From a virus, in IMG/VR virus record IMGVR_UViG_3300037493_005292, positions 34,877 to 98,876 of that record: a stretch of 64,000 bases of DNA; one strand, written 5' to 3'. The notes below the pieces were generated by a model that saw only the letters and a program-made list of their open reading frames with translations, was not told where the DNA came from and made no database searches. The stretch's first letter is position 1. Every line of letters starts with the position of its first letter. This document shows positions 8,204 to 60,414 of this stretch, one piece after another. A program made the position numbers and the translations under genes.

Positions 8204-8216
8204 AATCGAGGAAGAC

Positions 8217-8777: not shown

Positions 8778-8792
8778 TCTGAGGAGATACAA

Positions 8793-11669: not shown

Positions 11670-11676
11670 TCTCCGA

Positions 11677-12147
11677 CTATAAAATAGGAATTCCCGTAAC
11701 CGTCCCGATCGTACAAGCCCACCCCGTACTAAACCACAAAAAATAGCCGTTAGCCAAGACCGTCTTGGCTGTGGCGTTATCTGGCTGTTGTGCGGTAAGC
11801 ATTGGGGGCAAAATAGTGGCAAGAGGTACGATGGGCGCCGCGGCTATAACCGACGGCCATATCGTCGTAAAGGGGGCGAGCAGCGACACCACTGCAATCT
11901 GAAACAGACTGCAGTGGGTCGCCGGATCCAACGCTCTAAACGATGTGATGGTGTTTTGTACGAAGATAGCACGCGTTGTCTCGAGCGCTACCGGAACCGC
12001 GGGGACAGCACCTACGGCTGAGAGTCCCATCCACGTGATGAAGGCGTTACAGAACTTGGCTGCAGCGTCTTCGACTGTGGCACTTCCGGCTTCGTCGTTT
12101 GCAACGAGTGTGCTGATAAAGGCAGGTTGGGCTACGGAGAGGGGCAT
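11677..12147 (-). CDS. Hypothetical protein
   Basis: ORF track entry 11677-12204. The likely start is ATG 12147, just after the upstream stop at 12149-12151. Confidence 0.5.
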   Translation of the reverse strand: MPLSVAQPAFISTLVANDEAGSATVEDAAAKFCNAFITWMGLSAVGAVPAVPVALETTRAIFVQNTITSFRALDPATHCSLFQIAVVSLLAPFTTIWPSVIAAAPIVPLATILPPMLTAQQPDNATAKTVLANGYFLWFSTGWACTIGTVTGIPIL

Positions 12148-12148
12148 G

Positions 12149-12355
12149 TCAGATAACTTTGTCCAGGAAGGTTGCAGTGCTGACAGCGTATGTCGCAGCT
12201 TCACGCGCTAGGACAACTCGAATACCGGGACTTTCGTTGATGCAGTCCGCGCAGATGAATCCAACGGGATCACCGTTGTAGGTGAATTCGAGGGATCCTG
12301 GCCCGGGTCCATTCTCGCACTCCTCCATGGAACAGAGGTCAAATCCATTTTTCAT
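12149..12355 (-). CDS. Small Cys-containing hypothetical protein
   Basis: ATGA overlap with the RNR stop. Has CxxxxC and CxxC motifs. Confidence 0.55.
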   Translation of the reverse strand: MKNGFDLCSMEECENGPGPGSLEFTYNGDPVGFICADCINESPGIRVVLAREAATYAVSTATFLDKVI

Positions 12356-36789: not shown

Positions 36790-37803
36790 ATGTCGGATGA
36801 TTTCTTCTCTGACCGTACCTTTAAAACCTATTATGACGACGTGGGCAAACATACCGTGCTCACAACCCTCCAAGAGCGTGAGCTCTTGTTACGCTATAAG
36901 ACATGCCCGCTGTGCCATCAACGTTTACCGCACCTAATCCGTCGACCGAATTGTCCGCACTGCGGAGAGATATCGCCACAACGCGGTGATGGTAAAGCAG
37001 CTACTTGTACCACATGTGGCAAGCGTTTTGACTTGATCATACCTCCGTCGTACTGCCCGGATTGCGGGTCATCCCGTGACACCGTTGCACGAGAACAAAT
37101 CCTAGTTACAAATTTGCGTTTCGTTGTAAAGATGGCGAAGAAGTACTCGCGCCATCCCTCGCATATACAGCGTTTAGTGTCAGCAGGTAACGTAGGTCTG
37201 ATCGTAGCTCTCGACAAATTCGAGATTGAGCGTGGTACCAAATTTCTAACGTACGCTGCCTGGTGGATACAGAAGGAAATCAGAGAAGAACTCTATAACG
37301 GTGGTCTTGTCCGAATTCCTTCCCATAAACAAAAGACACAAAGAAAGAAGCAGAAGTTAGGCGCTTACACGTGCGTGGCTTGCGGGATGCAAGCCCATGA
37401 TCCGTTAGTCGCGTGCAAGTGTTCCCCTGGACTATCCCCTGAATACTTTCAGACGGAAACACTCGAGGATGAGTGTTTAACAACGCTGGTACCGATTGAT
37501 AACGTTACGCTAATCGACGAGGATGATGCAGAGTTTCAGTACATCGACTCTACGATGGCCGACGCCCTTCGAGAAGCAATAACCTCGCTAGCAGTGCGTG
37601 TCCGTGACCAATTCATCTTAATCCAGTACTACGACGTTGCAAGAGATGACCGCAAAAATGGAAGTAAGACACTTCCAGAGATTGCAGAAATCTCCGGGGT
37701 TACTCCAGAGAGAGTCCGGCAGGTGAAGATGAAAGTCCTCAAGGAGCTCAAGAAAGAGCTTCAGAGGAGATCACTTCGGGGGTCTGAGGATATCTGCAGG
37801 TAG
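36790..37803 (+). CDS. Sigma-70 family factor with zinc-ribbon insertions
   Basis: Region 1.2 'YYDDVGKHTVLTTLQEREL', region 2 'NLRFVVKMAKKY..GNVGLIVALDKFE..KFLTYAAWWI', region 4 'TLPEIAEISGVTPERVRQ'. Confidence 0.88.
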   Translation: MSDDFFSDRTFKTYYDDVGKHTVLTTLQERELLLRYKTCPLCHQRLPHLIRRPNCPHCGEISPQRGDGKAATCTTCGKRFDLIIPPSYCPDCGSSRDTVAREQILVTNLRFVVKMAKKYSRHPSHIQRLVSAGNVGLIVALDKFEIERGTKFLTYAAWWIQKEIREELYNGGLVRIPSHKQKTQRKKQKLGAYTCVACGMQAHDPLVACKCSPGLSPEYFQTETLEDECLTTLVPIDNVTLIDEDDAEFQYIDSTMADALREAITSLAVRVRDQFILIQYYDVARDDRKNGSKTLPEIAEISGVTPERVRQVKMKVLKELKKELQRRSLRGSEDICR

Positions 37804-41554: not shown

Positions 41555-41908
41555 TTAACGGACAGGTGGCTGCGGAATTGCGGTGCTACCTTCGATTGGG
41601 TCATAAGGCGGCGGGTCATAGGATTCGTTGTCGCTTGAGGGGCGTAAAACAACGAAGTCTTCGGGGTCTGGCTTCGATAAGACTGGGGATGTTTTGGACT
41701 TTACCGCAGGGGGAGTAACGGGGGCTGTAGCCGCAATTGATGGTGCACTGCTTGTACCACCAATTGTGACGAGATCCTGCAAACTCAGGTCGCAGAGCGT
41801 GAGCTCTCCTGTTGCCGGGTCAAATTTCGCTGCAGAGTGATGAAGGTCACACCCTAGGGCTTTCCCTAGAAGCTGCAGCACATCGTGTCTCTCGAATTTA
41901 ATCTGCAT
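41555..41908 (-). CDS. Hypothetical protein
   Basis: 117-aa ORF coupled to the helicase stop. Confidence 0.55.
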   Translation of the reverse strand: MQIKFERHDVLQLLGKALGCDLHHSAAKFDPATGELTLCDLSLQDLVTIGGTSSAPSIAATAPVTPPAVKSKTSPVLSKPDPEDFVVLRPSSDNESYDPPPYDPIEGSTAIPQPPVR

Positions 41909-43949
41909 TTCCGATGATCCTTGCCCGTGTGGTGAAGCGCGTAACCGCGCGTGAAAGGCAACACCCCGTTGCCCACGGGGTTATACCATGTGCCTGGCAC
42001 TTACTGAAGTCTTCGCACGTAAGACACGTGTACTTTTCTGTAAGTAGTTTCGAAATATTCTCTTTTGAATCCAGGGCGTAGAGCTGTGCGTACTCCAGGG
42101 TCTTATCCCCGCATAGGCGGTATACCACTACCTTTTGCTTTTGGCCGATACGGTAGTTACGTGCCCTGGATTGCTGCCAGTGTTCCAAAGACCAGGAGCG
42201 ACTGTAGTACACGGAATGCCGTGCGCATGTTAGGTTAATGGCAATTCCGGTTGCTTCCTGACCGAGGTAAACGCGGCACGCAGGATTCGTCATGAACTCT
42301 TTTTCGAGTTTCTTGATATGCTGCGTGGTACTGCCGTCAACTCGAACATAAGGCCAGTTACGCAGTTTAAGAAGACCCTCGATGTCGTCGAGTTCTGCTC
42401 CAAAGTTTGCCCACACGATTGCTTTTTCGGTGGGTTCCTGGAGGATATCGACTAGCAGGTCATCGAGTGCATCAAGTTTGGGGTTAGTGGGAAACCGCAG
42501 AGTTTCTCGTGCAGGCATCGGTATGTTACCGAGTTCTTCTTTTCGGGCACACTCATAAGTACCTGGGCGAACTCCGTTCGCGGTACATGTAATCAAATGG
42601 GGACATTCATCGCAAACTTCAGCAAACCGGTCCTCTTGCCAGTAGATAAAGCCGCTACACACCTGAAGCAGTTTAGCTAAACGTATCGCAGGATTAGCTA
42701 ACGTTACCGAGATACTTCCAACATCAATTGTCGCATCCTCCGTCTTTATAATTTCGTCATACACTTCGATCTGTTCGTCGGATAAGGTGTACGTAACGTT
42801 CTGATCGGTGATGCCCGGCATATCGATGCAGTCTTCGAGACGACAAGTACTGGATAAGGCCCCTACGCGCTCATTGATTGCGTTTAGGCACTTGTAGCTC
42901 GTAACGACGTGGGTGTTACGCTCTGAAAACACGCAGTGAGTCTGCACGAACTTGGTGTAGCTCGTAGTAAACTCATAATGGTTAGATATAGCGCGAATCT
43001 GCGGGTACAAATCCCGGGGATCACCGAGAGACAACGTACCCGTGAGAAGATACCGACGGGCTGCCTTTTTGGCTAACTCCGTTATCGCTACGGTTCTTTT
43101 GCTGTGATAGTTCTTTATTCGGTGGGATTCATCGAGGATAATCGTCTTGTAATCGATGTCACTTATGAAGGGGTGGGTAGGCATGGTTGCGGCTTCTGCG
43201 ATGATACTGGCTTCGTCTCGCCCTCTAAGCCACTCGTTGAATAGCCGGGCAACGGTGGGCATCCCCAGTACTCTGAGTACGGTGTTCCAAAACTTGGGAG
43301 ATGGCGATATACCGCGTTGTTTTAGTGCCTTCTCGAATAGCCTGGGAACATGCGGCGCGGAGTACAGTCTGGCGGTGTCGTACGGAACGATGATTACGTC
43401 GCAGTCCTGCGCTTGTGCTAAGAGCTCGTACTTTTTTGTTTTCGTAGTGGAAGCTATGGCCAAAGTTTTGAGCGTCCCACCGGAGTGCATCGCAACTTCT
43501 CTGACCCAGTTATCCACCGCGATAAGCGGGCAAATAACTAATGCGCGTTGTTTTAGCACGTTAAGTGCTTCAATGGCTACTTTGGTTTTTCCTGTTCCCA
43601 TTTCCCACTGGAGAATCCACCTCCAGTTGTGAAGAAATTCCGCCAAACCTTTGAGCTGGTGCTCGTAGCACTGAATCCCGCCGGGGCTTATATGCGCAGC
43701 CGCCTGGGCAACCGCATCTTCAAAAGTGGTCCTAGAAGCGATAAATAGTTGAGCTTCTTCGGTGAACTGCACGCCGGGCTGGACCTGCGGGAGGTCGTGA
43801 AGTACTCTCTCAAGGAATGGCGGATACGCGGGAAAAGCCCAAGTCTGATTTTTGTTGATACGGGTCGCTCCGAAGACGCGTGACCATACGGGGTTTTCGG
43901 TGTCGATTGCTAGGACGGGTACGTTGTAGTTGATTAGCTTGACTTCCAT
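41898..43949 (-). CDS. SNF2-family (SF2) helicase
   Basis: 'EMGTGKT', 'ILDESHRIKN', 'LTGT', 'QSRARNYRIGQ'. Confidence 0.9.
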   Translation of the reverse strand: MEVKLINYNVPVLAIDTENPVWSRVFGATRINKNQTWAFPAYPPFLERVLHDLPQVQPGVQFTEEAQLFIASRTTFEDAVAQAAAHISPGGIQCYEHQLKGLAEFLHNWRWILQWEMGTGKTKVAIEALNVLKQRALVICPLIAVDNWVREVAMHSGGTLKTLAIASTTKTKKYELLAQAQDCDVIIVPYDTARLYSAPHVPRLFEKALKQRGISPSPKFWNTVLRVLGMPTVARLFNEWLRGRDEASIIAEAATMPTHPFISDIDYKTIILDESHRIKNYHSKRTVAITELAKKAARRYLLTGTLSLGDPRDLYPQIRAISNHYEFTTSYTKFVQTHCVFSERNTHVVTSYKCLNAINERVGALSSTCRLEDCIDMPGITDQNVTYTLSDEQIEVYDEIIKTEDATIDVGSISVTLANPAIRLAKLLQVCSGFIYWQEDRFAEVCDECPHLITCTANGVRPGTYECARKEELGNIPMPARETLRFPTNPKLDALDDLLVDILQEPTEKAIVWANFGAELDDIEGLLKLRNWPYVRVDGSTTQHIKKLEKEFMTNPACRVYLGQEATGIAINLTCARHSVYYSRSWSLEHWQQSRARNYRIGQKQKVVVYRLCGDKTLEYAQLYALDSKENISKLLTEKYTCLTCEDFSKCQAHGITPWATGCCLSRAVTRFTTRARIIGNAD

Positions 43950-44004: not shown

Positions 44005-45780
44005 ATGGCACAAGACCTAATGATGTCGGATGCTGCGCTGTGGAACCAGAACGGGGGGACACATTCTAACCCGTACTACACCTTCAGCCAGCTCTACAGT
44101 CCTAAACGGCTCAAAGAGCTCTTCAAAATGTGCGAGTACCTCTTCTACCAAAGCCCGCAAATCTTCGCGGCTTTGCGTAAGTTTGGGGAATACCCTATCA
44201 CAGAAGTAACGTATGAGACCACCAATGAATCTCTTAAACGTCAGCATAAGGACCTCCTCGAGCGGGTAATCCGCGTTAGAGAGTTTTTGCTCAAGTGTTC
44301 TCTCGATAAGTGGATCTACGGCAACGCGTTTATTACGATGTATCAACCGTTTGTGCGCTATCTCAAGTGCCCCTCCTGCAGCGCGCTGACGAACATTAAG
44401 CACATCAAATACAAGTTCAACGTGAAGGGCCTTACGTTTACATACTCCTGTGACTGTTGCCATAAGGAAGTCGTCGCCAAAGAGAAGGACATTCAAGACC
44501 GAAAGCTGATGCTCAGTCGCAGTATCAATTTCATTCGGTGGGACCCCAAGAACATGGAGATCGACCATAACGCCATGACAGGCGAGTCGGTCTATTACTA
44601 TAAGATTCCGCAGTCAGACGTCGAGAAAGTAAACCGCGGGCATAAGACTTTCATTGACACGCTGCCCATCGGTTTTCTGAAGGCCATCCAGAAATCGAAG
44701 CCCTTCAAGTTTGCCGATGGTGCCATCTTCCACATGAAATTTGGGTCGCCGGCCGGTATCAACCCACAGTGGGGTATGCCCCCGTTGCTGCCAGCGTTGG
44801 ACCGATTCTTTTATACGCAGATTTTGCGAAAGGCTAACGAAGCCATCGCGCTCGACCATCTGGTTCCTTTCCGCATCCTGCACCCGCTGCAGTCGACTGC
44901 GGTGGCGGATCCGATGCAGACCATCAGTCTTTCGAACTGGAAGTACAACCTCGACCAGAACATCCGCAGGTTCCGTAAGGATCCCCTCCATATCATGTAC
45001 TCCCCTATTCCTGTGGGCGTGGTGCAGGTAGGTGGACAGGGTCGAGCCTTGCTGACCCTGGGTGAGGTTCAAGAAGCTGAGAAGAGCATCATCGCCGCTC
45101 TCGGTATCCCGATGGAGTTTATCTACGGTGGACTCACCGGACAGGGGATGAACGCTACGATGCGTCTCATCGAGAACCAGCTCGAGACGCACATCGCGGA
45201 CATCATCAACTTGTTGCAGTGGGTGGACGATAGCTGCGCGAAGTTCCTGGGTTGGGAAAAGATCCAAGTGGGTCTGACGCCGTTCAAGATCATCGATGAC
45301 TTGAACAAGCAGAACACCATACTCAGTATCTGGACCCAGGGTAAGACTGGGCAGGGGCCACAGATCATCTCGGATTCGACCATGGCTGAGATGAACGACA
45401 TCGATCTGGATAAGGAATACAAGCGCATCAAGCAGGAGACCTTGGACAACTTCCGGATGCAGCAGGATACCAACGTCGAAATCCAGAAGATGCAGAATGC
45501 CGCGGCATCCCAGGCGCAGCAGCAAGCAGCTGCCGGGGGTCCGCAGCAGTACAACCAGCAGCAGATCATCTCTAACGCTGACCAGCTCGTGGCTGAAGTC
45601 TCAGCTCTCGACCAGGGGTCGCGCAAGAGTCGGCTGTACCAGCTCATGCAGGAAGACTTCGTTCTGTACTCTGTGGTGGTTCAACGGCTCGAGCAGCAGA
45701 ATAACACGACGCGGCAACAGGCCACTGCGAGTATCCAGCAGCAACAGCAAACGCCGCAGCAACCACCACAGCAGGGGTAG
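44005..45780 (+). CDS. Portal protein
   Basis: 591 aa with a portal-like layout: 'IYGNAF', 'WGMPPL', 'LRKANEAIA', 'IIAALGIP'. Has a Zn-finger insert and a Gln-rich tail, and begins the head module. AAGGAG SD. Confidence 0.7.
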   Translation: MAQDLMMSDAALWNQNGGTHSNPYYTFSQLYSPKRLKELFKMCEYLFYQSPQIFAALRKFGEYPITEVTYETTNESLKRQHKDLLERVIRVREFLLKCSLDKWIYGNAFITMYQPFVRYLKCPSCSALTNIKHIKYKFNVKGLTFTYSCDCCHKEVVAKEKDIQDRKLMLSRSINFIRWDPKNMEIDHNAMTGESVYYYKIPQSDVEKVNRGHKTFIDTLPIGFLKAIQKSKPFKFADGAIFHMKFGSPAGINPQWGMPPLLPALDRFFYTQILRKANEAIALDHLVPFRILHPLQSTAVADPMQTISLSNWKYNLDQNIRRFRKDPLHIMYSPIPVGVVQVGGQGRALLTLGEVQEAEKSIIAALGIPMEFIYGGLTGQGMNATMRLIENQLETHIADIINLLQWVDDSCAKFLGWEKIQVGLTPFKIIDDLNKQNTILSIWTQGKTGQGPQIISDSTMAEMNDIDLDKEYKRIKQETLDNFRMQQDTNVEIQKMQNAAASQAQQQAAAGGPQQYNQQQIISNADQLVAEVSALDQGSRKSRLYQLMQEDFVLYSVVVQRLEQQNNTTRQQATASIQQQQQTPQQPPQQG

Positions 45781-46500: not shown

Positions 46501-49500
46501 ATGACTACGGAACTTACACCGCTATTGGTGCACCCCGACGTTAAGCGTGAAGCGATACGGCAAAAGGTTATTGAGGGTATTCACGAGTCTTTCCCGATGC
46601 GCTCGCGTAACAAGTTAGTTGAAATCACCGATGTGAAATTCACCCCCGAGAACTTCACATCGCGTGAACAAAAATCAGCTATCTTGCGCGGAGACACGCT
46701 GTTTGAGGCGGTAAAGGGAACAGTCGTTGTTAAGGACCGGGACTCGGGGCACGTCATTGATACGGCTAAAAATTTCTTGCTGGCTAAAGTACCGTGGTTT
46801 ACACCACGTCACACAGTGATAGTTGGCGGTAACGAGTATTCGATCTCGAGCATGGTTCGTCCAAAACCGGGGGTGTACACACGCAAGCGCGCCAACGGTG
46901 TTCTCGAAGCAAACTTCAACGTTGTTGGCACCAAGAATTTCAACATCACAATGGATCCTGAAAAGGGTGAGCCTGAGCTAGAGTACGACTCTACCCACAT
47001 TCCGCTATACCCAATCCTGCGCAAGTCGGGGCTATCACACGATCAGATTGCATCTGCGTGGGGGAGGCAACTGGCTGACGTAAACCAAACGCGTTTGATG
47101 AAAAACGCAGATGGTGCAGTCAGCAAGTTGTACACGAAAGCTGTTCCTGAGTATTTTCATAAGCCTGGGCTCTCGGCAGAAGAGAAAGCTCAAGAGATTT
47201 TTAGTCGTTATACCGGGGCGCACATGGACCCCGAAGTTAATAAGCAAACTCTTGGCGTGGCCCACAGCAAAATCACGCCGCACAGCCTGCTCGACGCGTC
47301 GTCGAAGATGCTAAAGATTTTCAGGAACGATGCAGAAGTTGATGACCGTGACAACCTTGATTTCAAGGTGATAAAGGGAATCGACGATTACTTTAAAGAG
47401 CGTATCAAGCTTGATGCGCGTGAAGTATCCAAGAAGGTTGCGATCAAGATTGACGCGCACCCTGACATTCGACAGGCCATTCCTACTGGCGTTTTTACGA
47501 AGGGTATTCTGCAGTTCATCAACAGCTCATCGCTGTCTACGGTCCCAACGCAAACCAACCCCATGGAGCTCGTGGACGCCGCACTTCGTATCACCGCGTT
47601 AGGTGAGGGCGGTATTGGTTCAGAGCGTGCCATTCCCATGGACGCACGGATGGTACATCCCACACAAATTGGCGCGCTGGACCCCGTGCGTACTCCTGAG
47701 TCGTTTGCTGCCGGCGTTGACGTCCGAGCTGCAATGATGGTCAAAAAGGACAAGGATGGAAACATCCATGTTCCTATGATCGACTTCAGAACTGGCAGAG
47801 GTAAGTATGTACGCGCCGGAGAGATCATCAGTAAGGTAGTAGCGTTCCCCACGACTACTCCGCTAAAAGGCAAAGTTGACGCGCTGGTAAACGGCGTTGT
47901 GCGTAAAGTAGATGTGTCGCAGGTGGACTACCAGTTGCCGCACCCGACTTCTATGTACAGCCCGGCGGCTAACCTGATTCCATTCTTAGAGTCGAACCAG
48001 GGTAACCGCTTAGTGATGGGGTCGAAGTACCAGACCCAAGCACTCTCACTGATTGACCGTGAAGAGCCGCATGTGCAGGTGATGTCGCAGTCAGGCAAGT
48101 CCTTTGAAGAGCTCATGGGCACTTTGATTAACCCCATAGCGTCTGTGACTGGGACGGTTTCTAAGATAGACGGGGACTTTGTACATATCCGTGCGGACAA
48201 GGACTATAAGACTGCCGCAAAAGAAGACATGCATCAGGTATCCTACGACACGTTTTTGCCGATGGCCGCGAAAACGTATTTACACCACACCCTCACGGTA
48301 AAAGAGGGTGACCGTGTTATTACAGGACAGTCGCTGGCTGACTCCAACTTTACCAAGAACGGCAAGTTGGCATTAGGCAAAAACTTGAGCGTCGCGTACA
48401 TGCCCTATTACGGTGACAACTCTAACGATGCAGTTGTCATTAGTGAAGGTGCAGCAAAGAAACTGACATCAGAGCGCATGTACAAGGTTGTTATCGACCG
48501 GGATCCTGACCTCACGTTTAACCGAGACAAACACCGAACGTACTATGGACATAATTACACGAAGGACCATTACGGTAAGCTCGATGAAGATGGAATCGTA
48601 AAACCCGGTACAGTCGTTATGCCAGGGGACATCGTAGTAGCTGGTCTGCGTAAGTCATTGATGACTTCAGACGACATACTTCTCGGACGTTTGCATAAGT
48701 CTCTAGCGCGCCCGTACCGCGAGAGTACTGAATCTTGGGATCATGAGCATGCTGGAGAAGTGGTCGATGTAGTCAAGACGCCAAAACGTTATGCACTCAC
48801 GATTAGAACCAAAGAACCGATGACAATCGGAGATAAAATCGCTGGGCGGTTCGGGGATAAGGGAGTGGTATCCCGAATTATCCCAGATTCGCAGATGGTC
48901 AAAGATGAAAGCGGGAAGCCTATTGATGTTATCGTGACATCTGCTGGCGTAGTTGGACGTATTAACCCAGCGCAGATTCTTGAAGGTGCGCTAGGCAAAG
49001 TTGTCGAAAAGACGGGTAAACCGATCCTAATAGAGAACCTTACTGGGCGTAATAACGTACAGTATGTCCGCGGGATTTTAAAAGAGCACGGTATCAAAGA
49101 CAAAGAAACCGTATATGACCCAATCGCGGATAAGCAGATACCGAATGTGTTCGTTGGCAATCGGTACATGCTGAAGCTGTTTAAGTCTACAGATACTAAT
49201 TACGACGCTAGAGGTATTGGGAGCTACGACGCAAACATGCAGCCTACGAAGGGCGGCGTGATGAGCTCTAAGGCGCTAGGCAAGATGGAGTTTGATGCTC
49301 TTGTAGCGCATAACGCACGCAGCGTGTTGCAAGAGGTTGTTACGCTGAAGAGCCAAAAAAACGATGAGTACTGGCGTGCATTACAGTTGGGTCTACCTGC
49401 GCCCCCACCAAAGACTACCTTCGCATCTAATAAGTTCTTGAACATGCTTACGGGTGCTGGCGTACGCGTTGACCGTAAGGGGAGCAAGATCTCATTAGCG

Positions 49501-52359
49501 CCCCTAACAGACAAAGACATCATGCAGATGTCGTCGGGAGCTATTACTGAGGCTAAGCTCGTACGTGCCAAAGATTTGATGCCTGAGAAGAATGGGTTGT
49601 TTGACCCAGTCATTACGGGCGGAGTCCGCGGGGAGAAGTGGTCGCACATTGAGCTAGCGGAGCCGATTGTCAATCCCATGTTCGTAGACCCAGTACGCCG
49701 TTTACTGGGCATGAACAACGCACAGCTAGTTCAAACCATCCGTGAAAAGGGTGGAGCGCACATAAAGACGGAGTTGGGTAAGATCGACTTGTCTGAAAAA
49801 GAGCGCGAGCTTCTGAATAAGACCAAGACGCTGACTGGAGCGTCGTTGGATAACGCGGTAAAACAGATCAAGTACATTCGTGCGTTGAAGTCGCAAAACC
49901 TCCGACCCGGAGATGCGTACGTCGTATCAAAAGTCCCCGTAGTTCCTCCGGTCATCCGTCCTGTTCTGCCCAGCAAGGGCGGGCAAGAGCTCATGTACGG
50001 GGACATCAATCCGCTGTACCGCGATCTCATCTACGTGAACAATCAGCTCAAAGAGCTGAAAGAGTCGGGGAAACTTCCTGAAGAAGAAGCCAAGCTCCGA
50101 GATACCCTGCACGGCGCCGTAGGTGCGGTGTACGGTACGAACGAGCCGATTACGCAGAAGTCCCAGGCGCGTGGTCACAAGGGTTTTCTGACGTACATCG
50201 CGGGAGTTGGCAGTCCCAAGTTTGGGTACTTCCAGAAAAAGCTCATGTCGAGGTCGCAGGATGTCACGGGTCGCGGCACCATCGTCCCGGATAGCACGCT
50301 TGGAATCGACGAGGTTGGTCTTCCCGAGAACATGATCTGGGGGATGTATGAACCCTTCCTCATCCGTAATCTGGTACGCCAGGGTTACCCCGCGCTCCAG
50401 GCGCGAGACATGGTGAAGGACAAACATCCTGCTGCTCGAGACTCAATGCTGCGGGAGATCAAAGAGCGGCCGGTCATGATTAACCGCGCGCCAACGCTGC
50501 ACCGGTACAACATCATCGGGGCTTATCCGGTTCCAGTCCCGGGTAAAACAATTCGCACGAGCCCATTCCTAGAGGTGGGAATGAACGCCGACTACGACGG
50601 TGACTGTGCTGATTGTACCCTAGATATCGGTACTTGCGTAGGCACGCGGCTTGTACTACAACGTCTCCACATCGGGGATTTCCCCCACAACGAGGAGACG
50701 AAGAAAGTGACTGGAAACAAAGAGCTCTACGAAGTCCCGGCGAACACGTTTGTCTTTGGATACAGCGAGAAGAACCAGCGAGTGCAACTTTGCGAGGTGT
50801 CGCACTTCTCCGTGCACCACGACTTGGAGATGCTAACCGTCACACTGGCTAGCGGGAGATCAGTCAAGGTTTCGCGCGACGCCAGCATGTTTGGGATGAA
50901 CCCCCTGACCGGTGAGCTATCACGCTTCAAAGCGGAGGACGGAATCGGCTGGGGAACACCCAAACCCCGCAAGTTGTACGTAGAGCAAAAGAAGGAGTAC
51001 TTGCGTCCCAGCCAGGATGCCCCCGACATGCTTAAAGTGCCGGTCGACTTTAACTTAGGCTGGGTGCTTGGCGCGTGGGCGGGTGACGGCTGGGTTGGCT
51101 ACAAGGATGCGGAGACAACGCGCTACATCGGACTGGCAAAAATTGATCCGATGGTGCGGCATACCTTTGCACAGCGCATGGACCGCTATAAGGAAAACGC
51201 GAGTATCAGAGAGTACACCGCGACCCACGCGTTTGGCGGCGGAGCATATCAGTCCACCAAGATGCACTTGAACGATACGGGTTTGGCAACCTGGTTCGCG
51301 GATGTCACAGAAGGTATCCGGGGTTCCAAGAAGAAGAAACTCCCAAGTTGGTTCATGCATGGTAAAGAGGACTTCCTTCTAGGGCTCCTGAGTGGGCTAT
51401 TGGACACAGACGGTACGGTGTGTAGCGTCCAAGCTAAGGCCAAAAACAAACCACAGATAATGGCCACGTATCACTCGATATCCCGTGACCTAGCGGTAGA
51501 CGTGTCCACCCTCCTGTGCCTCTTGGGTGTAAAGTCGCGCATTCATCCGTACACTAAAAAAGAAAGCATGGAGACGTATTACAACGTAGTAATCTCCGTG
51601 CCGGACCTACAGCGCATTGCGGGGCAGTTGGAGCTAGCTACCAAGGACAAAGCACAAGTCTTGGAAGAGCTCGCCAAAAACCCCTATAACATGGACGCCG
51701 CGGAAAACTCCCGGTGGGACATGGTTCCGATTTTGCCGAAGATTGCCAAAGCTCTCGCGCAGGCTAATGGCGCTCCCAAGGTGGCTACTGGGGACATGAG
51801 CCCCGAGAACCTGGCGCGTAAGCAGGTTTCTACGACGTATTCCTCGCTGATCCAGGCGGTTAAGCGGGGGCGGCTGAGCCGGTCAACTCTGAACGTCCTG
51901 CGTAAACGTATCGGCGACGATATCGTGCGTGCTATCAGCGGCGACGCATGGTTCAACAACGTCACGAACGAAGAGATCCTGTGGGATTTCGTTGAGACGG
52001 TTACTTCTATTCCTGGCAGGCATACTGCCTGGGATCTCACCGTGCCGGACGGCTGTACGTTCATGACAAGCGAGCAGATTATTGTCTATGACACCCTTAT
52101 GGTTCACGCCCCCGTGTCGCAAAAGGCCATCGAAGATGTCAAGAAGATGACGCTTTCGAACCTTCTCTACGGCGACAAGTCCAAAGACGACTTGCTGGCA
52201 GTTCCCAGGCACGAGGCCATGATGGGAATTGCACACGCGTCCAGCGCGGACGACAGAGAACCCACCAAGGTTTTTGCAAATCGGGCTGACCTCATGAAGG
52301 ACTACGCTGCTGGTAAGATTGGGATGGGCACACGCATCCAAATTAAGGACAGCAAATGA
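46501..52359 (+). CDS. Phage multisubunit RNA polymerase: beta fused to the N-terminal half of beta', intein-containing
   Basis: Beta motifs 'RTPES', 'NRLVMGSKYQTQA', 'GDKIAGRFGDKGVV', 'LGKMEFDAL'. Beta' motifs 'GLFDP', 'HIEL', 'PVVPPVIRP', 'NRAPTLH' and catalytic 'NADYDGD'. Confidence 0.92.
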   Translation: MTTELTPLLVHPDVKREAIRQKVIEGIHESFPMRSRNKLVEITDVKFTPENFTSREQKSAILRGDTLFEAVKGTVVVKDRDSGHVIDTAKNFLLAKVPWFTPRHTVIVGGNEYSISSMVRPKPGVYTRKRANGVLEANFNVVGTKNFNITMDPEKGEPELEYDSTHIPLYPILRKSGLSHDQIASAWGRQLADVNQTRLMKNADGAVSKLYTKAVPEYFHKPGLSAEEKAQEIFSRYTGAHMDPEVNKQTLGVAHSKITPHSLLDASSKMLKIFRNDAEVDDRDNLDFKVIKGIDDYFKERIKLDAREVSKKVAIKIDAHPDIRQAIPTGVFTKGILQFINSSSLSTVPTQTNPMELVDAALRITALGEGGIGSERAIPMDARMVHPTQIGALDPVRTPESFAAGVDVRAAMMVKKDKDGNIHVPMIDFRTGRGKYVRAGEIISKVVAFPTTTPLKGKVDALVNGVVRKVDVSQVDYQLPHPTSMYSPAANLIPFLESNQGNRLVMGSKYQTQALSLIDREEPHVQVMSQSGKSFEELMGTLINPIASVTGTVSKIDGDFVHIRADKDYKTAAKEDMHQVSYDTFLPMAAKTYLHHTLTVKEGDRVITGQSLADSNFTKNGKLALGKNLSVAYMPYYGDNSNDAVVISEGAAKKLTSERMYKVVIDRDPDLTFNRDKHRTYYGHNYTKDHYGKLDEDGIVKPGTVVMPGDIVVAGLRKSLMTSDDILLGRLHKSLARPYRESTESWDHEHAGEVVDVVKTPKRYALTIRTKEPMTIGDKIAGRFGDKGVVSRIIPDSQMVKDESGKPIDVIVTSAGVVGRINPAQILEGALGKVVEKTGKPILIENLTGRNNVQYVRGILKEHGIKDKETVYDPIADKQIPNVFVGNRYMLKLFKSTDTNYDARGIGSYDANMQPTKGGVMSSKALGKMEFDALVAHNARSVLQEVVTLKSQKNDEYWRALQLGLPAPPPKTTFASNKFLNMLTGAGVRVDRKGSKISLAPLTDKDIMQMSSGAITEAKLVRAKDLMPEKNGLFDPVITGGVRGEKWSHIELAEPIVNPMFVDPVRRLLGMNNAQLVQTIREKGGAHIKTELGKIDLSEKERELLNKTKTLTGASLDNAVKQIKYIRALKSQNLRPGDAYVVSKVPVVPPVIRPVLPSKGGQELMYGDINPLYRDLIYVNNQLKELKESGKLPEEEAKLRDTLHGAVGAVYGTNEPITQKSQARGHKGFLTYIAGVGSPKFGYFQKKLMSRSQDVTGRGTIVPDSTLGIDEVGLPENMIWGMYEPFLIRNLVRQGYPALQARDMVKDKHPAARDSMLREIKERPVMINRAPTLHRYNIIGAYPVPVPGKTIRTSPFLEVGMNADYDGDCADCTLDIGTCVGTRLVLQRLHIGDFPHNEETKKVTGNKELYEVPANTFVFGYSEKNQRVQLCEVSHFSVHHDLEMLTVTLASGRSVKVSRDASMFGMNPLTGELSRFKAEDGIGWGTPKPRKLYVEQKKEYLRPSQDAPDMLKVPVDFNLGWVLGAWAGDGWVGYKDAETTRYIGLAKIDPMVRHTFAQRMDRYKENASIREYTATHAFGGGAYQSTKMHLNDTGLATWFADVTEGIRGSKKKKLPSWFMHGKEDFLLGLLSGLLDTDGTVCSVQAKAKNKPQIMATYHSISRDLAVDVSTLLCLLGVKSRIHPYTKKESMETYYNVVISVPDLQRIAGQLELATKDKAQVLEELAKNPYNMDAAENSRWDMVPILPKIAKALAQANGAPKVATGDMSPENLARKQVSTTYSSLIQAVKRGRLSRSTLNVLRKRIGDDIVRAISGDAWFNNVTNEEILWDFVETVTSIPGRHTAWDLTVPDGCTFMTSEQIIVYDTLMVHAPVSQKAIEDVKKMTLSNLLYGDKSKDDLLAVPRHEAMMGIAHASSADDREPTKVFANRADLMKDYAAGKIGMGTRIQIKDSK
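50605..52092 (+). mobile_element. Intein with in-frame LAGLIDADG endonuclease at the RNAP catalytic motif (496 aa, ends Tyr-Asp)
   Basis: Starts at Cys right after NADYDGD. LAGLIDADG motifs 'LGAWAGDG' and 'LSGLLDTDG'; block F 'AWDLTVPDGCTF'. Ends 'IIVYD' before Thr, and excision gives NADYDGD-TLMVH. Confidence 0.88.
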
Positions 52360-53873
52360 CGTCACCAGTACTAATCGACAACGCTGCGACCGGTCAGAAG
52401 CTCACGAAGCAAGATGTTGTCGATTATTACAATGCGCCGCACATCCGTAAAGGTATCTTGGCGGGGATGTACGGAGACGGCGTATTAACGGTGATGCAGC
52501 GCGAGCCTGGAAAGCCCATATACAGGCGGTATCTGGCCAAGGACCGTCCGATAGAGCTCCGTACTCCAGCGCACATGGAGCAGCTTACTAACCAGCGAAC
52601 AGTGGAGATTCACCCGAGCGTCGGGGCGTCCACCAACGTTCTCTGGGTAGACCTCGATCCTGGAGAACACGTTGACCTCGATACTACCAAGGACACGGTC
52701 AGGCAAGTACACAGTCTGATGCGTACGCTGCCCGACGTGGTACATACGGATATTGCATTTTCTGGTGGTCGGGGTTTTTACGTTCGCTCGTTCCTGTCTT
52801 CTCCGATGAACACGGACAAAGCGCGTATGTTGCTCACGTCGAAACTCTCTCCGTTGGTGAATAGCGACGCAAAGTTGACTATGGAACCTCCTGGAAAGGG
52901 TCAGATACGTTTAGACGTTTCTACGCTGCACGATAAGGGCTCGATTCGCGCGCTTTACTCGCTCAATGCAGCCACAGGACTTGCGTCTGTTCCGGTAAAA
53001 ACACGGGAACTGGACGAGTTCAATCCACACGTAGACGCGGATCCTAGACGTCTCTTGTCTGACAAAAAAATCTCGGAATTTGCTCCTGGAATTCCAAAAG
53101 CACGGGTTACGCACCCGCTTCCAGAGGGCTCTGGGCACTCGTGGACGATGTCCGTGCAGCACCACAATGCCGATAAAGCCGGACCCCACTGGGATTTACG
53201 CTTAGTAGACCCCGAGACATCCCACGCGCATTCGTGGGCAATACCGCGTGCGAATTTCCCCCCTCCAGGGGAACGACCGTATTTGGCGATTAGAACACCT
53301 ACGCACTCGGCGGAGTACGCGCTGAATTTTGGTCAAGATGGTCCACGAGTAATCGGCGCTGGATACGGTAAAGGGACTGTTGAGATAAAGCACAAGGAAC
53401 CCGTCAAAGTTATTTCAACATCCCCGCGTGCTATAAAATTTGAACGGACTCTTGAAGGTGGTTCAAAAGAGCAGTATGCGCTGTTCCACACCCATTCCGA
53501 TAAGTGGTTGTTACGAAACACCACTAGACAGGATGAACCCGTGAATTTTGCAAAAGAAGCCTTCATGCTCGGATATGCTACAGCGTTGGAGAAGCTGGGT
53601 GTGGGTACCTCAGGTACATCAGGACAGTCGGGAAAGAACGTGTCGCATTCTATGTCGACCAACCCACTGGAAATGGGGGACGAGAATCTGCCCGCAGGTC
53701 AGCTTGCGTCGGCACTCTCGCAGTTACAAGAGCCCAGTCAGACGAACACCATGAAGAATGAAGAGTCGGCGGAAGACCGTTTGAATCGGGATATCAGCTG
53801 GTCAGAGCCTGTCACGATGCCTACGGATTCTGGCCGGCAAGGTGCTTCGGCGGTTATACCTGGAGCGTTCTGA
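52356..53873 (+). CDS. LigD-like protein: primase-polymerase (AEP) domain plus 3'-phosphoesterase domain, no ligase domain
   Basis: Pol domain 'LTKQDVVDYY', 'VEIH', 'DLDPG', 'FSGGRGF'. PE domain 'QHH..PHWDLRL', 'SWAIP', 'LAIRTPTH..Y', 'GYGKG'. Confidence 0.8.
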   Translation: MTSPVLIDNAATGQKLTKQDVVDYYNAPHIRKGILAGMYGDGVLTVMQREPGKPIYRRYLAKDRPIELRTPAHMEQLTNQRTVEIHPSVGASTNVLWVDLDPGEHVDLDTTKDTVRQVHSLMRTLPDVVHTDIAFSGGRGFYVRSFLSSPMNTDKARMLLTSKLSPLVNSDAKLTMEPPGKGQIRLDVSTLHDKGSIRALYSLNAATGLASVPVKTRELDEFNPHVDADPRRLLSDKKISEFAPGIPKARVTHPLPEGSGHSWTMSVQHHNADKAGPHWDLRLVDPETSHAHSWAIPRANFPPPGERPYLAIRTPTHSAEYALNFGQDGPRVIGAGYGKGTVEIKHKEPVKVISTSPRAIKFERTLEGGSKEQYALFHTHSDKWLLRNTTRQDEPVNFAKEAFMLGYATALEKLGVGTSGTSGQSGKNVSHSMSTNPLEMGDENLPAGQLASALSQLQEPSQTNTMKNEESAEDRLNRDISWSEPVTMPTDSGRQGASAVIPGAF

Positions 53874-55678
53874 TGGCTGGGACTGAGGAACAGACGTTTG
53901 GAAAGTTCTTGCTTAACGAGGCGTTGCCCCCGGGCTATAAGGCGACTGGACCTCTTACCAGCAAGAATTTTTCATCGATGATGTCGCGTATGGCGCACGA
54001 TGACCCACGTCTATATGCGCAGGTTGTTCCTCATTTGAAACGGGTAGGGGACTCGATCGCTACTACTGAGGGGTTATCAATTGGGCTCGATGACATTGAG
54101 CCTGATTATAAAACTCGGGATGCTGCGCTAGCCCCACATATTAAAAAGTTTGACGCGGCTACCAACGACACTGCCCGTAAAGCGATAGTCGAAGACGCTC
54201 AGTCTTACATGCAGAACAACGCCATGGAACACAAAGGAACCATGACGCAGCAAGTAAAGAGTGGCTCACGTGGTAAGGCGGTGCAGTATACCGCAATCGT
54301 ATCTACTCCTACGTATGCTCGAGATGGACGTGGCAGCACAGAACCTTGGCTTATCCGTCACTCATACAGTGAGGGGTTGCATCCGTCTGAAAACTGGATT
54401 GCAGGTAACGAAGCAATCCTGAACACTATCAAATCAAGAACGTCGATCGCTGAGCCTGGTGAAATTTCCAAGATCCTCATTAACAACCTGTCTGATATCA
54501 TCATTACGGAGTCAGACTGTGGTACACACAATGGCATCCAAATGGACCCGCGTAATCCCGACGTTGTTGATCGTTTTCTGGCTAAAGCGACGCAAGGCTT
54601 TCCGTACAACACCCTGATAACGCCGCTCAATCAACCAAAGCTTATTGCCTCTGCTCCTAAAGTTTTGGTTAGGTCTCCAATGACGTGCGAAGCAGGCGAC
54701 GGTGTTTGTCAAAAATGCCAGGGTCTCAATGAAAAAGGTGCGATTCACGACGTTGGCACAAACATCGGAGTGCGCGCGGCACAGGCGATGTCTGAGCCGT
54801 TGACGCAGTTTGCGCTCAACGTTAGACACGGCGTACGAATTGCAGCGGATGATCGTCTACAGGTAGGTGGTATTTCAGGACTCCGCCAAATCATGGAGTC
54901 CCCTCAGCAGTTCATAAATAAGTCCACGTTGTCTTCCATTCCAGGTAAGGTCACAAAGATAGAAGAGGCACCTCAAGGTGGCCATTTTGTTTACGTGAAT
55001 ACCGTGCAGTTTTACGTAACTCCCAATTTGAAGGTCATCGTAAAAATCGGTGATTACGTAGAACCCGGGGACATGCTCAGTGAGGGAATTCCGAAACCAG
55101 ACGAAGTCGTAAAGTACAAGGGTCTCGGACACGGGCGGCAGTACATTGTCGATTCTCTAAAGAAACTGTATATCGGCCAGGGCAAGGACATGGACCAACG
55201 CCACTTCGAGATATTGGCCAAGGGGGAACTCAACCATGTCAGAATTATTAACGACCCTAGCAGTACGTTTCTAAACGGCGACATCATTAGTTATAACGCT
55301 CTCCGTGCTTCCATAGGCAAGAACATCAAAATCGTCCCTACTGAAGATGCGCTCGGAGAAACTCTGGGTAAGGAGTACCTGGGATACTCAGTAGGAACGC
55401 GCATCACGCCACCGGCAATAAAGTTTCTAAAGGAACGCGGTGTGAAAGAGGTTGTTGTGGCTCCACGAGCTCCTGAAGTAGAGTTTGTGATGAAGCCTGC
55501 GACGCGTGCTCCGCTGCTCAATCCGGACTGGCTAGCACGGCTAGCACATCGTAGTTTGAAGACCACGCTTCAGCAGGCGGCGCATTTTGGTGAAGTCTCG
55601 GACATACACGGAACCCACCCGGTCCCCGCATACGTATTTGGTGTAGAATTTGGCCAAGGCGAAAAGGGACGATACTAA
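53873..55678 (+). CDS. RNA polymerase beta' C-terminal subunit
   Basis: 'SGSRG', 'SYSEGL', 'DCGT', 'RSPMTC..GVCQKC', 'IGVRAAQAMSEPLTQFAL', 'RHFEIL'. Confidence 0.9.
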   Translation: MAGTEEQTFGKFLLNEALPPGYKATGPLTSKNFSSMMSRMAHDDPRLYAQVVPHLKRVGDSIATTEGLSIGLDDIEPDYKTRDAALAPHIKKFDAATNDTARKAIVEDAQSYMQNNAMEHKGTMTQQVKSGSRGKAVQYTAIVSTPTYARDGRGSTEPWLIRHSYSEGLHPSENWIAGNEAILNTIKSRTSIAEPGEISKILINNLSDIIITESDCGTHNGIQMDPRNPDVVDRFLAKATQGFPYNTLITPLNQPKLIASAPKVLVRSPMTCEAGDGVCQKCQGLNEKGAIHDVGTNIGVRAAQAMSEPLTQFALNVRHGVRIAADDRLQVGGISGLRQIMESPQQFINKSTLSSIPGKVTKIEEAPQGGHFVYVNTVQFYVTPNLKVIVKIGDYVEPGDMLSEGIPKPDEVVKYKGLGHGRQYIVDSLKKLYIGQGKDMDQRHFEILAKGELNHVRIINDPSSTFLNGDIISYNALRASIGKNIKIVPTEDALGETLGKEYLGYSVGTRITPPAIKFLKERGVKEVVVAPRAPEVEFVMKPATRAPLLNPDWLARLAHRSLKTTLQQAAHFGEVSDIHGTHPVPAYVFGVEFGQGEKGRY

Positions 55679-57750: not shown

Positions 57751-60414
57751 ATGCCCCCGATGTCTATGTCCCCTGAAGTCAATGCTTATGGACAACTCCC
57801 CTCAGCTGAGCAAGCGGAGGAAGTGTTCAAGCAGCGGTTCTCAGAAATGGCGTATAACGTTTTGTTCGCGAAATTCGCGGACCTTGCTCCTCAAGTCGTT
57901 ACTTTCAAAATGCTCGATTCTGATGCCACGACGGGTAAAGCCGTTGGCGCCTTTATCCTGCTGTTCGAGAGTAAACCCATTTACATCCCTGTTATCATGG
58001 TAGACAGCTCGCTCAAGCCGATGGACCTGTTCTACTTTAAAGAGCTCAACATCTTCCTCCCCCTCTCTAAGGAGTGGCTCGAGGAAGTTTCGAAGATGTC
58101 TCTTAACTCACAGGGTGACCCAGCGGACATTCCCTCGCAGGTTCCGCAAGATGTGAATATCCGCGACCTCATTCTGCCGCCGGTTATGCCTTACGGCCGC
58201 GTAGGACTGGCGTCGGCGGACGACCTGACAAAAGAATCCACCGATTTCTACGTCAGGCACATGTTCAAAGAGGCGCAGCGGAACAACAGCTTGAAAGTTC
58301 CTCTGCGTTTTTTGGAGTTCGTCGAGAACGCGCCGACAAACGTCTTGGACGGTATCAAAATCGCGTTTGAGAGGCACCCCAATTTCCTCAAGAAGGCGGT
58401 AGCGGTATACGGTAAGACAGCTTTCGTTTCGGCGTTCCAGAACGGGTACGCGAAGAACGCGAGAACGGTAAAGACTGCCGCTGCTCCTGCTGGCAGTGTT
58501 TACGTCTTTACGGGAAGTTCCGATGTGAACCAACTGCGTAGTGTGTGCGGTACGCGCTCCAGTGCAGTGTATTCGGATCTCCTGAAAATTGGCGCGGCGG
58601 CTGTGGATACGCGGGATAAGACCAACAACACGGTTATCAAAACAGAAAACACCGTGCGTCTGCAGTCTCCGGGTCCTAAGGGTGGGTTTTTCAAGCTGTT
58701 CTTTTTGGACGCGCCTGCGGATACCTACTACGTTGCGCCGTTGCACAATCTTCGTGGTAGCTCCTGCAGTCATACTGGGTATTATGAGGGTAACTGGGCG
58801 AAGCCCTGCAGCCAGCAATATCTGGTTATCAGCAAAGACGGCAAGGTAGTGTGGAAAGATAAGGACATTGTCGGCAATCCCATTGACGACCGTACGGAGA
58901 TCGCAGGAACGCGTATTTTCAAGATGCTCGAGAACAACAGCGGTGGGGACACGCCCAAGACCAATGATTACGGATTCTTCCTGTACAACTCTCCGAAGGG
59001 TCCGCAGGTAACAGAGCCTCAGACCATTTCGAGCGTGTGGGAGTCGGACGGGCGTACCCGTATTCAAACGCGTTGGAGTGACCCCACGTACATCATCGAT
59101 GAGGCGAACACCCGGCAGAAGATCGATTACGCGAACGACGGCAAGTTCGTGTTTCTGCCAAAGGGCGCAATGTGGGTATCTCTCGCCACGGCGAAGGATG
59201 GGGAAAACCCCGAGTACTCGGAGGAGTATTCGAATCTGCACCGCACCTCGATTATCAAAGACACCCGCGTTTTGTCTCGTTGGTTGAACGACACGCTGAA
59301 GTCCACTGGGGCTACCGAAGTGGAAGTCAAACGTGCCAGTGCAACCGAGTGGTGGATTGGTAAAGAGGGTCGGGCGTACGGGTTGGCGGATGCGCTGAAG
59401 AAGGTGGCCCTCGAGCATGACCTTTCCGTCAAGGACGCGGCTGAAGTTCTGATTGACGCACACCTGAACGGGAAATGCCGTGCTCTCAAAGTGACGACGA
59501 AGACAGCCCGCGCGCTGTTGAAGCTCGCCGCTCCGGCAGGTAATGCGCAGCAAGACCCGTCGCAGATGCAGCAGCAGGGTGCGCAGCAACAGGAAGTTGC
59601 CCAGCCGCAGCCTGGTCAGGATCCGGCGATGATGGGCATGGCCCCGCCGCCTCCCCCGACGATTTCGCCGACTGACCTGGCGATTGCCGAGGCAGTTCAA
59701 ACGCTGCAACATGAGAACGAGCTCAAGATGCAGCAGATTCAGTCGCAGATTGACCAGCAGCAACAGCAGCTGCAGCAACAGCAAGAGCAGATGCAGTCGC
59801 AGATTGCGCAGCAGCAGCAGTCGCTTCAGCAGGAGTCCGACAATACCAACAAGCTCATCACGGTGTTGCAGCAGATTCAGCAGCGGTCGACCATGCTGTC
59901 ACAAGCGACTGGCGGTGTGATTCCGCAGGGCGCGGAGCAGTCGCCGATGGCTGCCGGGCAGATGTTGGCGCCAACGCCGCCTCCAGAAGAGGAGCAACCG
60001 CCGATGCCGGTTATGCCGCAAGAAGGTGGCATGAGTCCGGACATGATTGCGCAGCAGATAAACCCACAGCTTGCTGAGCAGGCTGGTGACTTGAATGACC
60101 AGGGAGTGTTCGACACATCTACTCTGTCTTCTCTTGCGGCAGCTCCAGTTCTTCAGGATCTGGTTGCTACGTACATTCCCAACCTGGAGAAGTCGGTAGA
60201 CAACCTGGGGCGTATTCTCCTCACGCTTTGGATGCGTGAAGCAGAAGTTAAAGGGACGCTTGGTGCGACCACTTACATCACGCTCGAGGACAAGCTTCGG
60301 AATGTCTTCAAGGGTATGGGTGATGTCGTGCTGCAGATTAACCGCAACGCCGCGGGAAATCAGTCGCAGGCGCAGCAGCAACAACAGCAGCAAATGGTGG
60401 GCGACCAGCAGTAA
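57751..60414 (+). CDS. Large hypothetical head-module protein with a Gln/Pro-rich C-terminal region
   Basis: 887 aa, AAGGAG SD, polyQ coiled-coil, K-x-A sites. Confidence 0.7.
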   Translation: MPPMSMSPEVNAYGQLPSAEQAEEVFKQRFSEMAYNVLFAKFADLAPQVVTFKMLDSDATTGKAVGAFILLFESKPIYIPVIMVDSSLKPMDLFYFKELNIFLPLSKEWLEEVSKMSLNSQGDPADIPSQVPQDVNIRDLILPPVMPYGRVGLASADDLTKESTDFYVRHMFKEAQRNNSLKVPLRFLEFVENAPTNVLDGIKIAFERHPNFLKKAVAVYGKTAFVSAFQNGYAKNARTVKTAAAPAGSVYVFTGSSDVNQLRSVCGTRSSAVYSDLLKIGAAAVDTRDKTNNTVIKTENTVRLQSPGPKGGFFKLFFLDAPADTYYVAPLHNLRGSSCSHTGYYEGNWAKPCSQQYLVISKDGKVVWKDKDIVGNPIDDRTEIAGTRIFKMLENNSGGDTPKTNDYGFFLYNSPKGPQVTEPQTISSVWESDGRTRIQTRWSDPTYIIDEANTRQKIDYANDGKFVFLPKGAMWVSLATAKDGENPEYSEEYSNLHRTSIIKDTRVLSRWLNDTLKSTGATEVEVKRASATEWWIGKEGRAYGLADALKKVALEHDLSVKDAAEVLIDAHLNGKCRALKVTTKTARALLKLAAPAGNAQQDPSQMQQQGAQQQEVAQPQPGQDPAMMGMAPPPPPTISPTDLAIAEAVQTLQHENELKMQQIQSQIDQQQQQLQQQQEQMQSQIAQQQQSLQQESDNTNKLITVLQQIQQRSTMLSQATGGVIPQGAEQSPMAAGQMLAPTPPPEEEQPPMPVMPQEGGMSPDMIAQQINPQLAEQAGDLNDQGVFDTSTLSSLAAAPVLQDLVATYIPNLEKSVDNLGRILLTLWMREAEVKGTLGATTYITLEDKLRNVFKGMGDVVLQINRNAAGNQSQAQQQQQQQMVGDQQ

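Follow-up and report, generated by a model that had tools for sequence, protein, structure and literature searches.

A fused and split bacterial-type RNA polymerase encoded by an uncultured phage and by hundreds of its relatives

The stretch of viral DNA analyzed here, referred to as the window, is 64,000 nucleotides (nt) long and represents the last 64 kb of a 98,876-bp viral contig (IMG/VR record IMGVR_UViG_3300037493_005292, positions 34,877 to 98,876; CheckV completeness 55%). Its positions 46501-55678 are filled by three open reading frames (ORFs), all on the same strand. The first ORF encodes the whole beta subunit of a multisubunit RNA polymerase (RNAP) fused to the N-terminal part of beta', and the third ORF encodes the remainder of beta'. 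This fused-and-split layout is real and is common to hundreds of phages, including the cultured Salmonella phage Arash. With a probability of roughly 0.8 we consider the window to encode the sole RNAP of an Arash-like phage, a bacterial-type core re-partitioned into two chains.

Layout of the RNAP genes

The features of the RNAP region, with the evidence used for each assignment in brackets, are as follows.

46501..52359, + strand: ORF1, 1952 amino acids (aa), beta::beta'-N fusion with an intein in the beta' part (Pfam, motifs, contig with 97% identity)
46501..49473, + strand: beta portion, aa 1-991 (Pfam Rpb2_3/6/7; alignment)
48844..48864, + strand: GRFGDKG, variant of the beta motif GRHGNKG (read directly, aa 782)
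49474..50604, + strand: N-extein of beta'-N, aa 992-1368, starting with RKGSKISLAPLTD (alignment; Pfam Rpb1_1, Rpb1_2)
49594..49656, + strand: GLFD...HIEL, site of the zinc-ribbon deletion (motif reading; Salmonella alignment)
50584..50604, + strand: catalytic motif NADYDGD, aa 1362-1368 (read directly)
50605..52092, + strand: intein with LAGLIDADG endonuclease, aa 1369-1864 (Pfam; profile break)
52093..52359, + strand: C-extein of beta'-N, 88 aa, TLMVHAPVS...IKDSK, plus the stop codon (rpoC_TIGR profile positions 449-535)
52356..53873, + strand: ORF2, 505 aa, cargo gene with LigD-like Prim-Pol and 3'-phosphoesterase domains (Pfam)
53873..55678, + strand: ORF3, 601 aa, beta'-C with bridge helix, trigger-loop region and second zinc site (Pfam Rpb1_5; PDB; rpoC_TIGR)
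54518..54718, + strand: second zinc site, DCGT (C216) plus C272, C279 and C282 (read directly in ORF3)

An earlier note on this stretch, made from the sequence alone, had described beta motifs running straight into beta' motifs within one ORF, and both the domain order and an alignment with the Salmonella subunits agree with this description. The Pfam matches of ORF1 follow each other in the order Rpb2_3, Rpb2_6 (E=2.7e-46), Rpb2_7, Rpb1_1 and Rpb1_2, and then comes an Intein_splicing match enclosing LAGLIDADG_3. The end of the beta portion, ...GAGVRVD (aa 991), aligns with the C-terminus of Salmonella beta, and beta'-N begins with RKGSKISLAPLTD, which corresponds to about residue 14 of Salmonella beta'; a linker is absent at the junction. 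The rest of beta' is found, as the note had also stated, in a second gene 1.5 kb downstream. This gene, ORF3, matches Rpb1_5 (E=3e-17), aligns with residues ~660-1185 of full-length bacterial beta' chains in a PDB search (E about 1e-33) and covers positions 549-1065 of the rpoC_TIGR profile. The scores obtained with this profile (170 bits for beta'-C, 185 bits for the beta'-N of the relative L100) do not reach the equivalog cut-off of 963.5.

The position of the cut in beta' differs from the earlier description, which let the fusion ORF end just past NADYDGD. Actually a 496-aa intein and 88 aa of beta' precede the stop codon, and if the intein is discounted the cut lies 88 aa past the DxDGD motif, whose three catalytic Asp residues are intact. 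Expressed in positions of the bacterial beta' profile, the phage cut falls between about 537 and 544, and therefore no beta' sequence is missing. ORF1 and ORF2 share the nucleotides ATGA, and ORF2 and ORF3 share TGATG; these overlaps of start and stop codons suggest that the three ORFs could be translationally coupled.

Two further peculiarities noticed earlier were confirmed. The conserved beta motif GRHGNKG indeed reads GRFGDKG at aa 782, and relatives show GRYGNKG, GLHGNKG or GRHGNKG at this site. The N-terminal zinc-finger cysteines of beta' are gone: the segment from GLFD (aa 1032) to HIEL (aa 1049) is free of Cys, and compared with Salmonella beta' the complete four-Cys zinc ribbon of 32 residues is deleted. 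The same deletion is found in four relatives and in the clade consensus. We also inspected the segment of the rifampicin pocket (window positions 47450-47560, aa about 318-352 of ORF1), which reads FINSSSLSTVPTQTNPMELVDAALRIT. The residues that we take to correspond to positions 516, 526 and 531 (E. coli numbering) are T, A and T in the alignment to Salmonella beta. Judged by what is known about resistance mutations, the phage enzyme is probably insensitive to rifampicin.

An intein directly after the catalytic motif

The intein (496 aa, aa 1369-1864) follows directly after NADYDGD. It starts with Cys1 (Cys1369), contains a LAGLIDADG domain at 1624-1707 (LAGLIDADG_3, 47.1 bits with a cut-off of 22.5), and its C-terminus ...IIVYD is followed by Thr as +1 residue (Thr1865). 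The match to a profile of relatives without the intein stops at aa 1368 and is taken up again at aa 1864. In these relatives DGD continues with T/A-M-x-V-H-V-P (consensus NADFDGD-TMxVHVPV); Arash and Vibrio phage D69 differ from the window in having no insertion at this site. Removal of the intein would restore NADYDGD-TLMVHAPVS, as in the intein-free homologues. Related inteins at the same site likewise end in Asp.

Two intein families occupy the site behind DxDGD in the relatives; one has Asn before Thr at its end, and the family of the window has Asp before Thr or Ser. The residue preceding the intein is Asn in seven of the 42 intein-bearing proteins (P0006, P0011, P0053, P0129, P0132, P0145 and P0149), always followed by Cys1 and always in the family of the window, and it is Asp at the equivalent position of all 108 intein-free proteins (108/108). 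Canonical splicing of these seven proteins would leave DxDGN and thus a broken Mg triad. HMMER places the last Asp of the intein on the catalytic Asp. A relative with 60% identity (L006:3930-10028 of IMGVR_UViG_3300027996_003468) contains a second LAGLIDADG intein in beta, between GDKL and SGRYGNKG, and therefore the catalytic motif of beta is an intein target too.

Recurrence of the fused-and-split layout

A second contig, IMGVR_UViG_3300031746_002900, carries the same ORF (1951 aa, 97% identity) and the same overlapping ORF2. The relative with 60% identity, which has two inteins, shows the same linker-free junction. A megablast search with 14 kb of the window against the phage collection gave no match. 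At the level of about 35-36% identity the layout is present in Salmonella phage Arash (OQ632216; gp206 with 1525 aa and gp216 with 606 aa) and in the Vibrio phages D69, D148 and D181. These four phages share with the window the linker-free beta::beta'-N fusion, a cut about 88-90 aa past the catalytic motif with the beta'-C gene downstream, the deletion of the beta' zinc ribbon, a portal gene just upstream, a sigma factor in the genome and the position in the same clade of the tree. The gap between the two RNAP genes differs: in Arash it spans 4.7 kb with about ten genes, in D69 it consists of about 0.6 kb with small ORFs, and in the window it is filled by the PrimPol-phosphoesterase.

In D181 (L002, locus 7986-13500) and D148 the fusion gene is interrupted by a homing-endonuclease ORF and is annotated in pieces around it, whereas the gene of D69 is intact. 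The interruption looks like an intron or the insertion of a free-standing endonuclease.

To determine the size of the family, residues 200-1368 were searched against 1.84 billion representatives. This search returned 10,398 matches, 2,057 of them at E<=1e-30. In all of the best 150 representatives (E<1e-216, 36-62% identical) a single chain runs from beta into beta'-N. For tree construction, the 144 representatives no shorter than 1370 aa were combined with the window, Arash, D69 and three outgroup sequences from bacteria into a set of 150 rows. The set comprises 82 proteins split like that of the window (84-90 aa past the motif, inteins discounted), 62 complete single chains and three fragments. 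In IMG/VR we counted more than 507 loci of the split type and more than 558 of the unsplit type, some of them on contigs of 160-216 kb.

Searches of the literature for a beta::beta'N plus beta'C architecture of this fused-and-split kind and for a fused beta-beta' phage RNAP with a sigma factor found no description. In the Arash publication (PMC10585845) the two chains are annotated merely as beta and beta', and their architecture is not described. The earlier note had proposed a distinct phage RNAP lineage. This holds with respect to phiKZ and AR9, but the lineage is not new, as the window clusters with Arash, D69, D148, D181 and hundreds of IMG/VR contigs. The window therefore adds a further member to a recurrent lineage without a description in the literature.

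Accessory subunits, sigma factor and neighboring genes

Profile searches of the 98.9-kb contig detected neither alpha (PF01000, PF01193) nor omega (PF01192), in line with the earlier report of a missing alpha gene in the window. Alpha (PF01000) was also not found in five complete or near-complete relatives, namely Arash, D69 and three IMG/VR genomes rated 97-100% complete. Both the contig of the window and each of these five genomes contain exactly one match to the beta barrel (Rpb2_6).

The genes around the RNAP region that could be assigned are listed below.

36790..37803, + strand: sigma-70 family factor with zinc-ribbon-like CxxC motifs (sigma-70 regions 2 and 4)
41898..43949, - strand: SNF2-type helicase, homologue of Arash gp198c (homology search)
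44005..45780, + strand: portal protein, homologue of Arash gp204 (E=9e-88; weak PHROG portal match)
57751..60414, + strand: homologue of the Arash virion structural protein gp218 (homology search)

Several sigma factors had been implied for this DNA, but the contig has a single clear sigma gene, the one at 36790-37803, which lies 9.7 kb upstream of the RNAP gene. Its synteny is conserved: in 31 related loci a homologue is placed 8-10 kb upstream of the gene for the RNAP. Of the five complete or near-complete relatives, four gave a match to sigma-70 region 2. The stretch of the sigma factor from the N-terminus to region 2 contains four CxxC pairs and gives weak matches to double zinc-ribbon families of Pfam.

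The RNAP genes sit between the portal gene and genes for structural proteins, which bears out the proposed location in the head module. The order SNF2 helicase, portal, RNAP and gp218-like structural protein is syntenic with Arash. Packaging of the enzyme into the virion, which had been put forward as a possibility, is plausible. The proteins gp206 and gp216 were among the most abundant proteins of purified Arash virions, with 3516 and 1210 spectra, respectively, and the sigma factor gp10 was detected as well (PMC10585845).

Position of the cut, cargo and direction of change

The cut is placed very uniformly: in 54 of 57 split loci the catalytic motif is followed by a tail of 84-92 aa. In these 57 loci the two RNAP genes never adjoin and are separated by a gap of 542 to 5716 nt. 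Its cargo is highly variable. A PrimPol-phosphoesterase like ORF2 occurs in 14 related loci, and other gene clusters are present elsewhere; ten representatives of the cargo gave ferritin-like proteins, an SNF2 helicase and unknown proteins. Fission by a free-standing homing endonuclease was considered as well and is unsupported, as no endonuclease family was obtained with the ten representatives. A homologue of the ORF2 phosphoesterase is also encoded 0.2-5 kb downstream of unsplit RNAP genes (L012, L041, L076, L161 and L165); the domain therefore accompanies the polymerase in both architectures.

The unsplit single-chain beta-beta' proteins are about 2000-2090 aa long. Their C-extein leads directly into the region homologous to ORF3. 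In P0087, for example, the C-extein region comprises residues 1375-1456 and the beta'-C region residues 1457-1997. Unsplit relatives such as P0087 and P0134 are 36-42% identical to the window protein over 1169 aa and share its beta/beta' junction, zinc-ribbon deletion and intein site, but their beta' is continuous where the gene of the window is cut. In L063 (IMGVR_UViG_3300025602_000002, 205 kb), a locus otherwise of the full type, the beta barrel is located in an open frame of 603 aa, and this member may be cut at another place as well.

Trees rooted on the three bacteria were calculated with FastTree (150 rows) and in a quick IQ-TREE run (62 rows). Every split form falls into one clade (FastTree support 97; Shimodaira-Hasegawa-like approximate likelihood ratio test, SH-aLRT, of 100 with IQ-TREE), and inside this clade the window is sister to P0001 and P0002. 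Two full-length forms, P0058 and P0042, branch at or near the base of the split clade, and the other full-length forms appear basal. Both trees placed the split clade within paraphyletic full-length forms, but this nested position was given up as a constrained tree scored better. The split is best read as a derived, secondary fission at one fixed position, because bacterial beta' is continuous, nothing is missing at the cut and the split clade has unsplit forms at its base. Between one and three events of fission or re-fusion are needed.

Proposed enzyme and alternative explanations

The phage that carries the window would be Arash-like with a genome of roughly 180 kb, and its enzyme would consist of two chains derived from a bacterial-type catalytic core. 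Chain 1 would provide the complete beta subunit together with the clamp, the double-psi barrel and the Mg-binding DxDGD loop of beta', ending 88 residues past this loop. Before it becomes active it would have to shed the intein of 496 aa, which sits right after the last Asp. Chain 2 would contribute the remaining beta' with bridge helix, trigger loop and second zinc site. The two chains are expected to form the core in the absence of alpha and omega; the covalent beta-beta' link would probably replace the alpha dimer as an assembly aid, and promoters would probably be recognized by the sigma-70 factor of the phage. Homology with Arash makes it probable that the enzyme is packed into the virion, injected and used for transcription of early genes. 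With regard to its origin, the beta-beta' fusion is common to a very large phage clade, and the cut of beta' would have been introduced later at one fixed position. The gap opened in this way could serve as a slot for changing cargo, occupied here by the putatively translationally coupled PrimPol-phosphoesterase.

A more far-reaching version of this proposal is a minimal, self-sufficient and sigma-dependent RNAP made of two phage chains plus sigma, lacking alpha, omega and the beta' zinc ribbon, which is packed into the capsid, injected, independent of the host enzyme and probably rifampicin-insensitive, and whose fission point is a conserved expression slot for co-translated accessory enzymes. 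We regard this version as a tentative idea that is somewhat more likely to fail than to hold.

Several points weigh against the proposed enzyme. Across the whole lineage, splicing, activity, the need for sigma and the independence from alpha and omega of the host are deduced from sequence. Virion packaging has been demonstrated for Arash alone, whose protein is about 36% identical. The beta motif GRHGNKG is altered to GRFGDKG. Efficient splicing is not assured, since the Intein_splicing (Hint) domain scores 24.3 bits, less than the Pfam cut-off of 35.8, and the intein terminates in Tyr-Asp and not in the His-Asn of class 1. With a contig completeness of 55% the gene absences rest on the relatives. 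Furthermore, the trees do not decide the polarity of the fission, which rests on outgroup logic and the two basal full-length forms: a constrained search for the approximately unbiased (AU) test yielded a better tree in which the 26 other full-length forms make up one clade (log likelihood 74.8 higher, p-AU 0.945).

Among the other explanations, a hybrid enzyme survives best, although we consider it unlikely. In such a hybrid the phage chains would assemble on the alpha dimer (and omega) of the host, displacing host beta and beta', and the phage sigma factor would direct the chimera. Phage genes for alpha and omega were not found, and those of the host could be borrowed; in addition, phage beta plus beta'-N is about 27-28% identical to the bacterial subunits compared with 23% to phiKZ/AR9. 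For beta'-C the values are about 23-27% in both comparisons. On the other hand, the covalent beta-beta' link would obviate the main need for an alpha platform, an argument that draws on what is established for tethered E. coli subunits and the natural fusions of Helicobacter. Moreover, the cores of phiKZ and AR9 function without alpha (PMC7598289), and the Arash virion proteome, as far as the excerpted report covers it, contains the phage chains and sigma while host alpha was not seen there (PMC10585845).

It is very improbable that the window contains a decaying or inactive copy, in which the intein with its Tyr-Asp end remains unspliced, GRFGDKG weakens catalysis and the gene is heading for loss. 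The Asp instead of Asn at the C-terminus of the intein, the low score of the Hint domain and the altered beta motif would fit such a copy. However, the three ORFs are intact across 9.2 kb with coupled start and stop codons, the three Asp residues of the active site are preserved, and the gene is the sole RNAP in the complete relatives. The 97%-identical relative also retains the same intein, with Ser1 and a ...YD end before Thr, and about two dozen other representatives carry inteins of this family with Asp before Thr or Ser. The artificial joining of separate rpoB-like and rpoC-like genes by mis-assembly or a frameshift, a possibility raised in the earlier note, can be dismissed, as the 97% contig has the same ORF and overlapping downstream gene, and the linker-free junction recurs in the independent 97% and 60% contigs, in the isolate genomes of Arash and D69, in 150/150 best representatives and in more than 1000 IMG/VR loci.

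If the proposed enzyme is active on its own, it would be the simplest sigma-dependent multisubunit RNAP known and a natural test of the need for alpha, omega and the beta' zinc ribbon. In this clade the same gene occurs in three forms: fused, split again at a single fixed site, and with inteins inserted at the catalytic loop. It thus offers a clean case for studies of gene fusion and fission. The cultured member Arash, which grows on Salmonella Typhimurium, makes these proposals testable.

Comparison with other RNAPs

The phages phiKZ and AR9 encode beta/beta'-like cores without alpha or omega, with one of the forms packed inside virions, and like in the window their beta' is split after the double-psi barrel (PMC7598289). 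In contrast to the window, where beta is whole and fused to beta'-N, their beta consists of two to three pieces. They possess two paralogous sets of the enzyme (virion and non-virion) and no sigma homologue, whereas the window has one set and a sigma-70 factor. The sequence similarity between the window and phiKZ/AR9 amounts to 23-27% and is confined to parts of the proteins; AR9 gave a single Rpb1_2 match, in a frame of 391 aa without DxDGD. Reviews up to 2026 (including PMC7598289) assign large phages either to a group with a phiKZ-type split RNAP without sigma or to a group with a sigma factor that relies on the host RNAP. The lineage described here breaks this two-group rule, as it combines its own bacterial-type beta-beta' enzyme with sigma-70 and has no alpha or omega.

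The mReC phages resemble the window in being uncultured tailed phages whose beta and beta' are bacterial-like and easily aligned with their cellular homologues (PMC7481178). We considered whether the window belongs to this lineage. This assignment was rejected, as the supplement lists the beta of mReC (about 1010 or 1364 aa) apart from its beta' (about 900-1010 aa), as separate proteins (Weinheimer & Aylward 2020, PMC7481178). The term 'fused' is applied in this publication to crAssphage only.

In bacteria, RpoBC fusions of the Helicobacter type join beta to beta' in one polypeptide like phage chain 1. The unsplit phage protein P0087 scores 490 bits with NF007172 (cut-off 5372) and 435 bits with NF011417 (cut-off 4632). 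The cut-offs for RpoBC are missed by an order of magnitude, and the phage fusion is therefore not an equivalog of the bacterial fusions; most likely it originated independently of them. The bacterial RpoBC fusions keep alpha, omega and the zinc ribbon.

In the rpoC1-rpoC2 genes of cyanobacteria and plastids, beta' is divided behind the catalytic barrel, in broadly the same region as in the phage, but the beta subunit of cyanobacteria is not fused to gamma as it is to beta'-N in the phage. According to a comparison of profiles, the gamma profiles run 62-68 positions past the phage cut and the RpoC2 profiles begin no more than about 10-15 residues away from where phage beta'-C starts. The cyanobacterial and phage cuts are thus near each other, though a coincidence of the two is not shown by these profiles.

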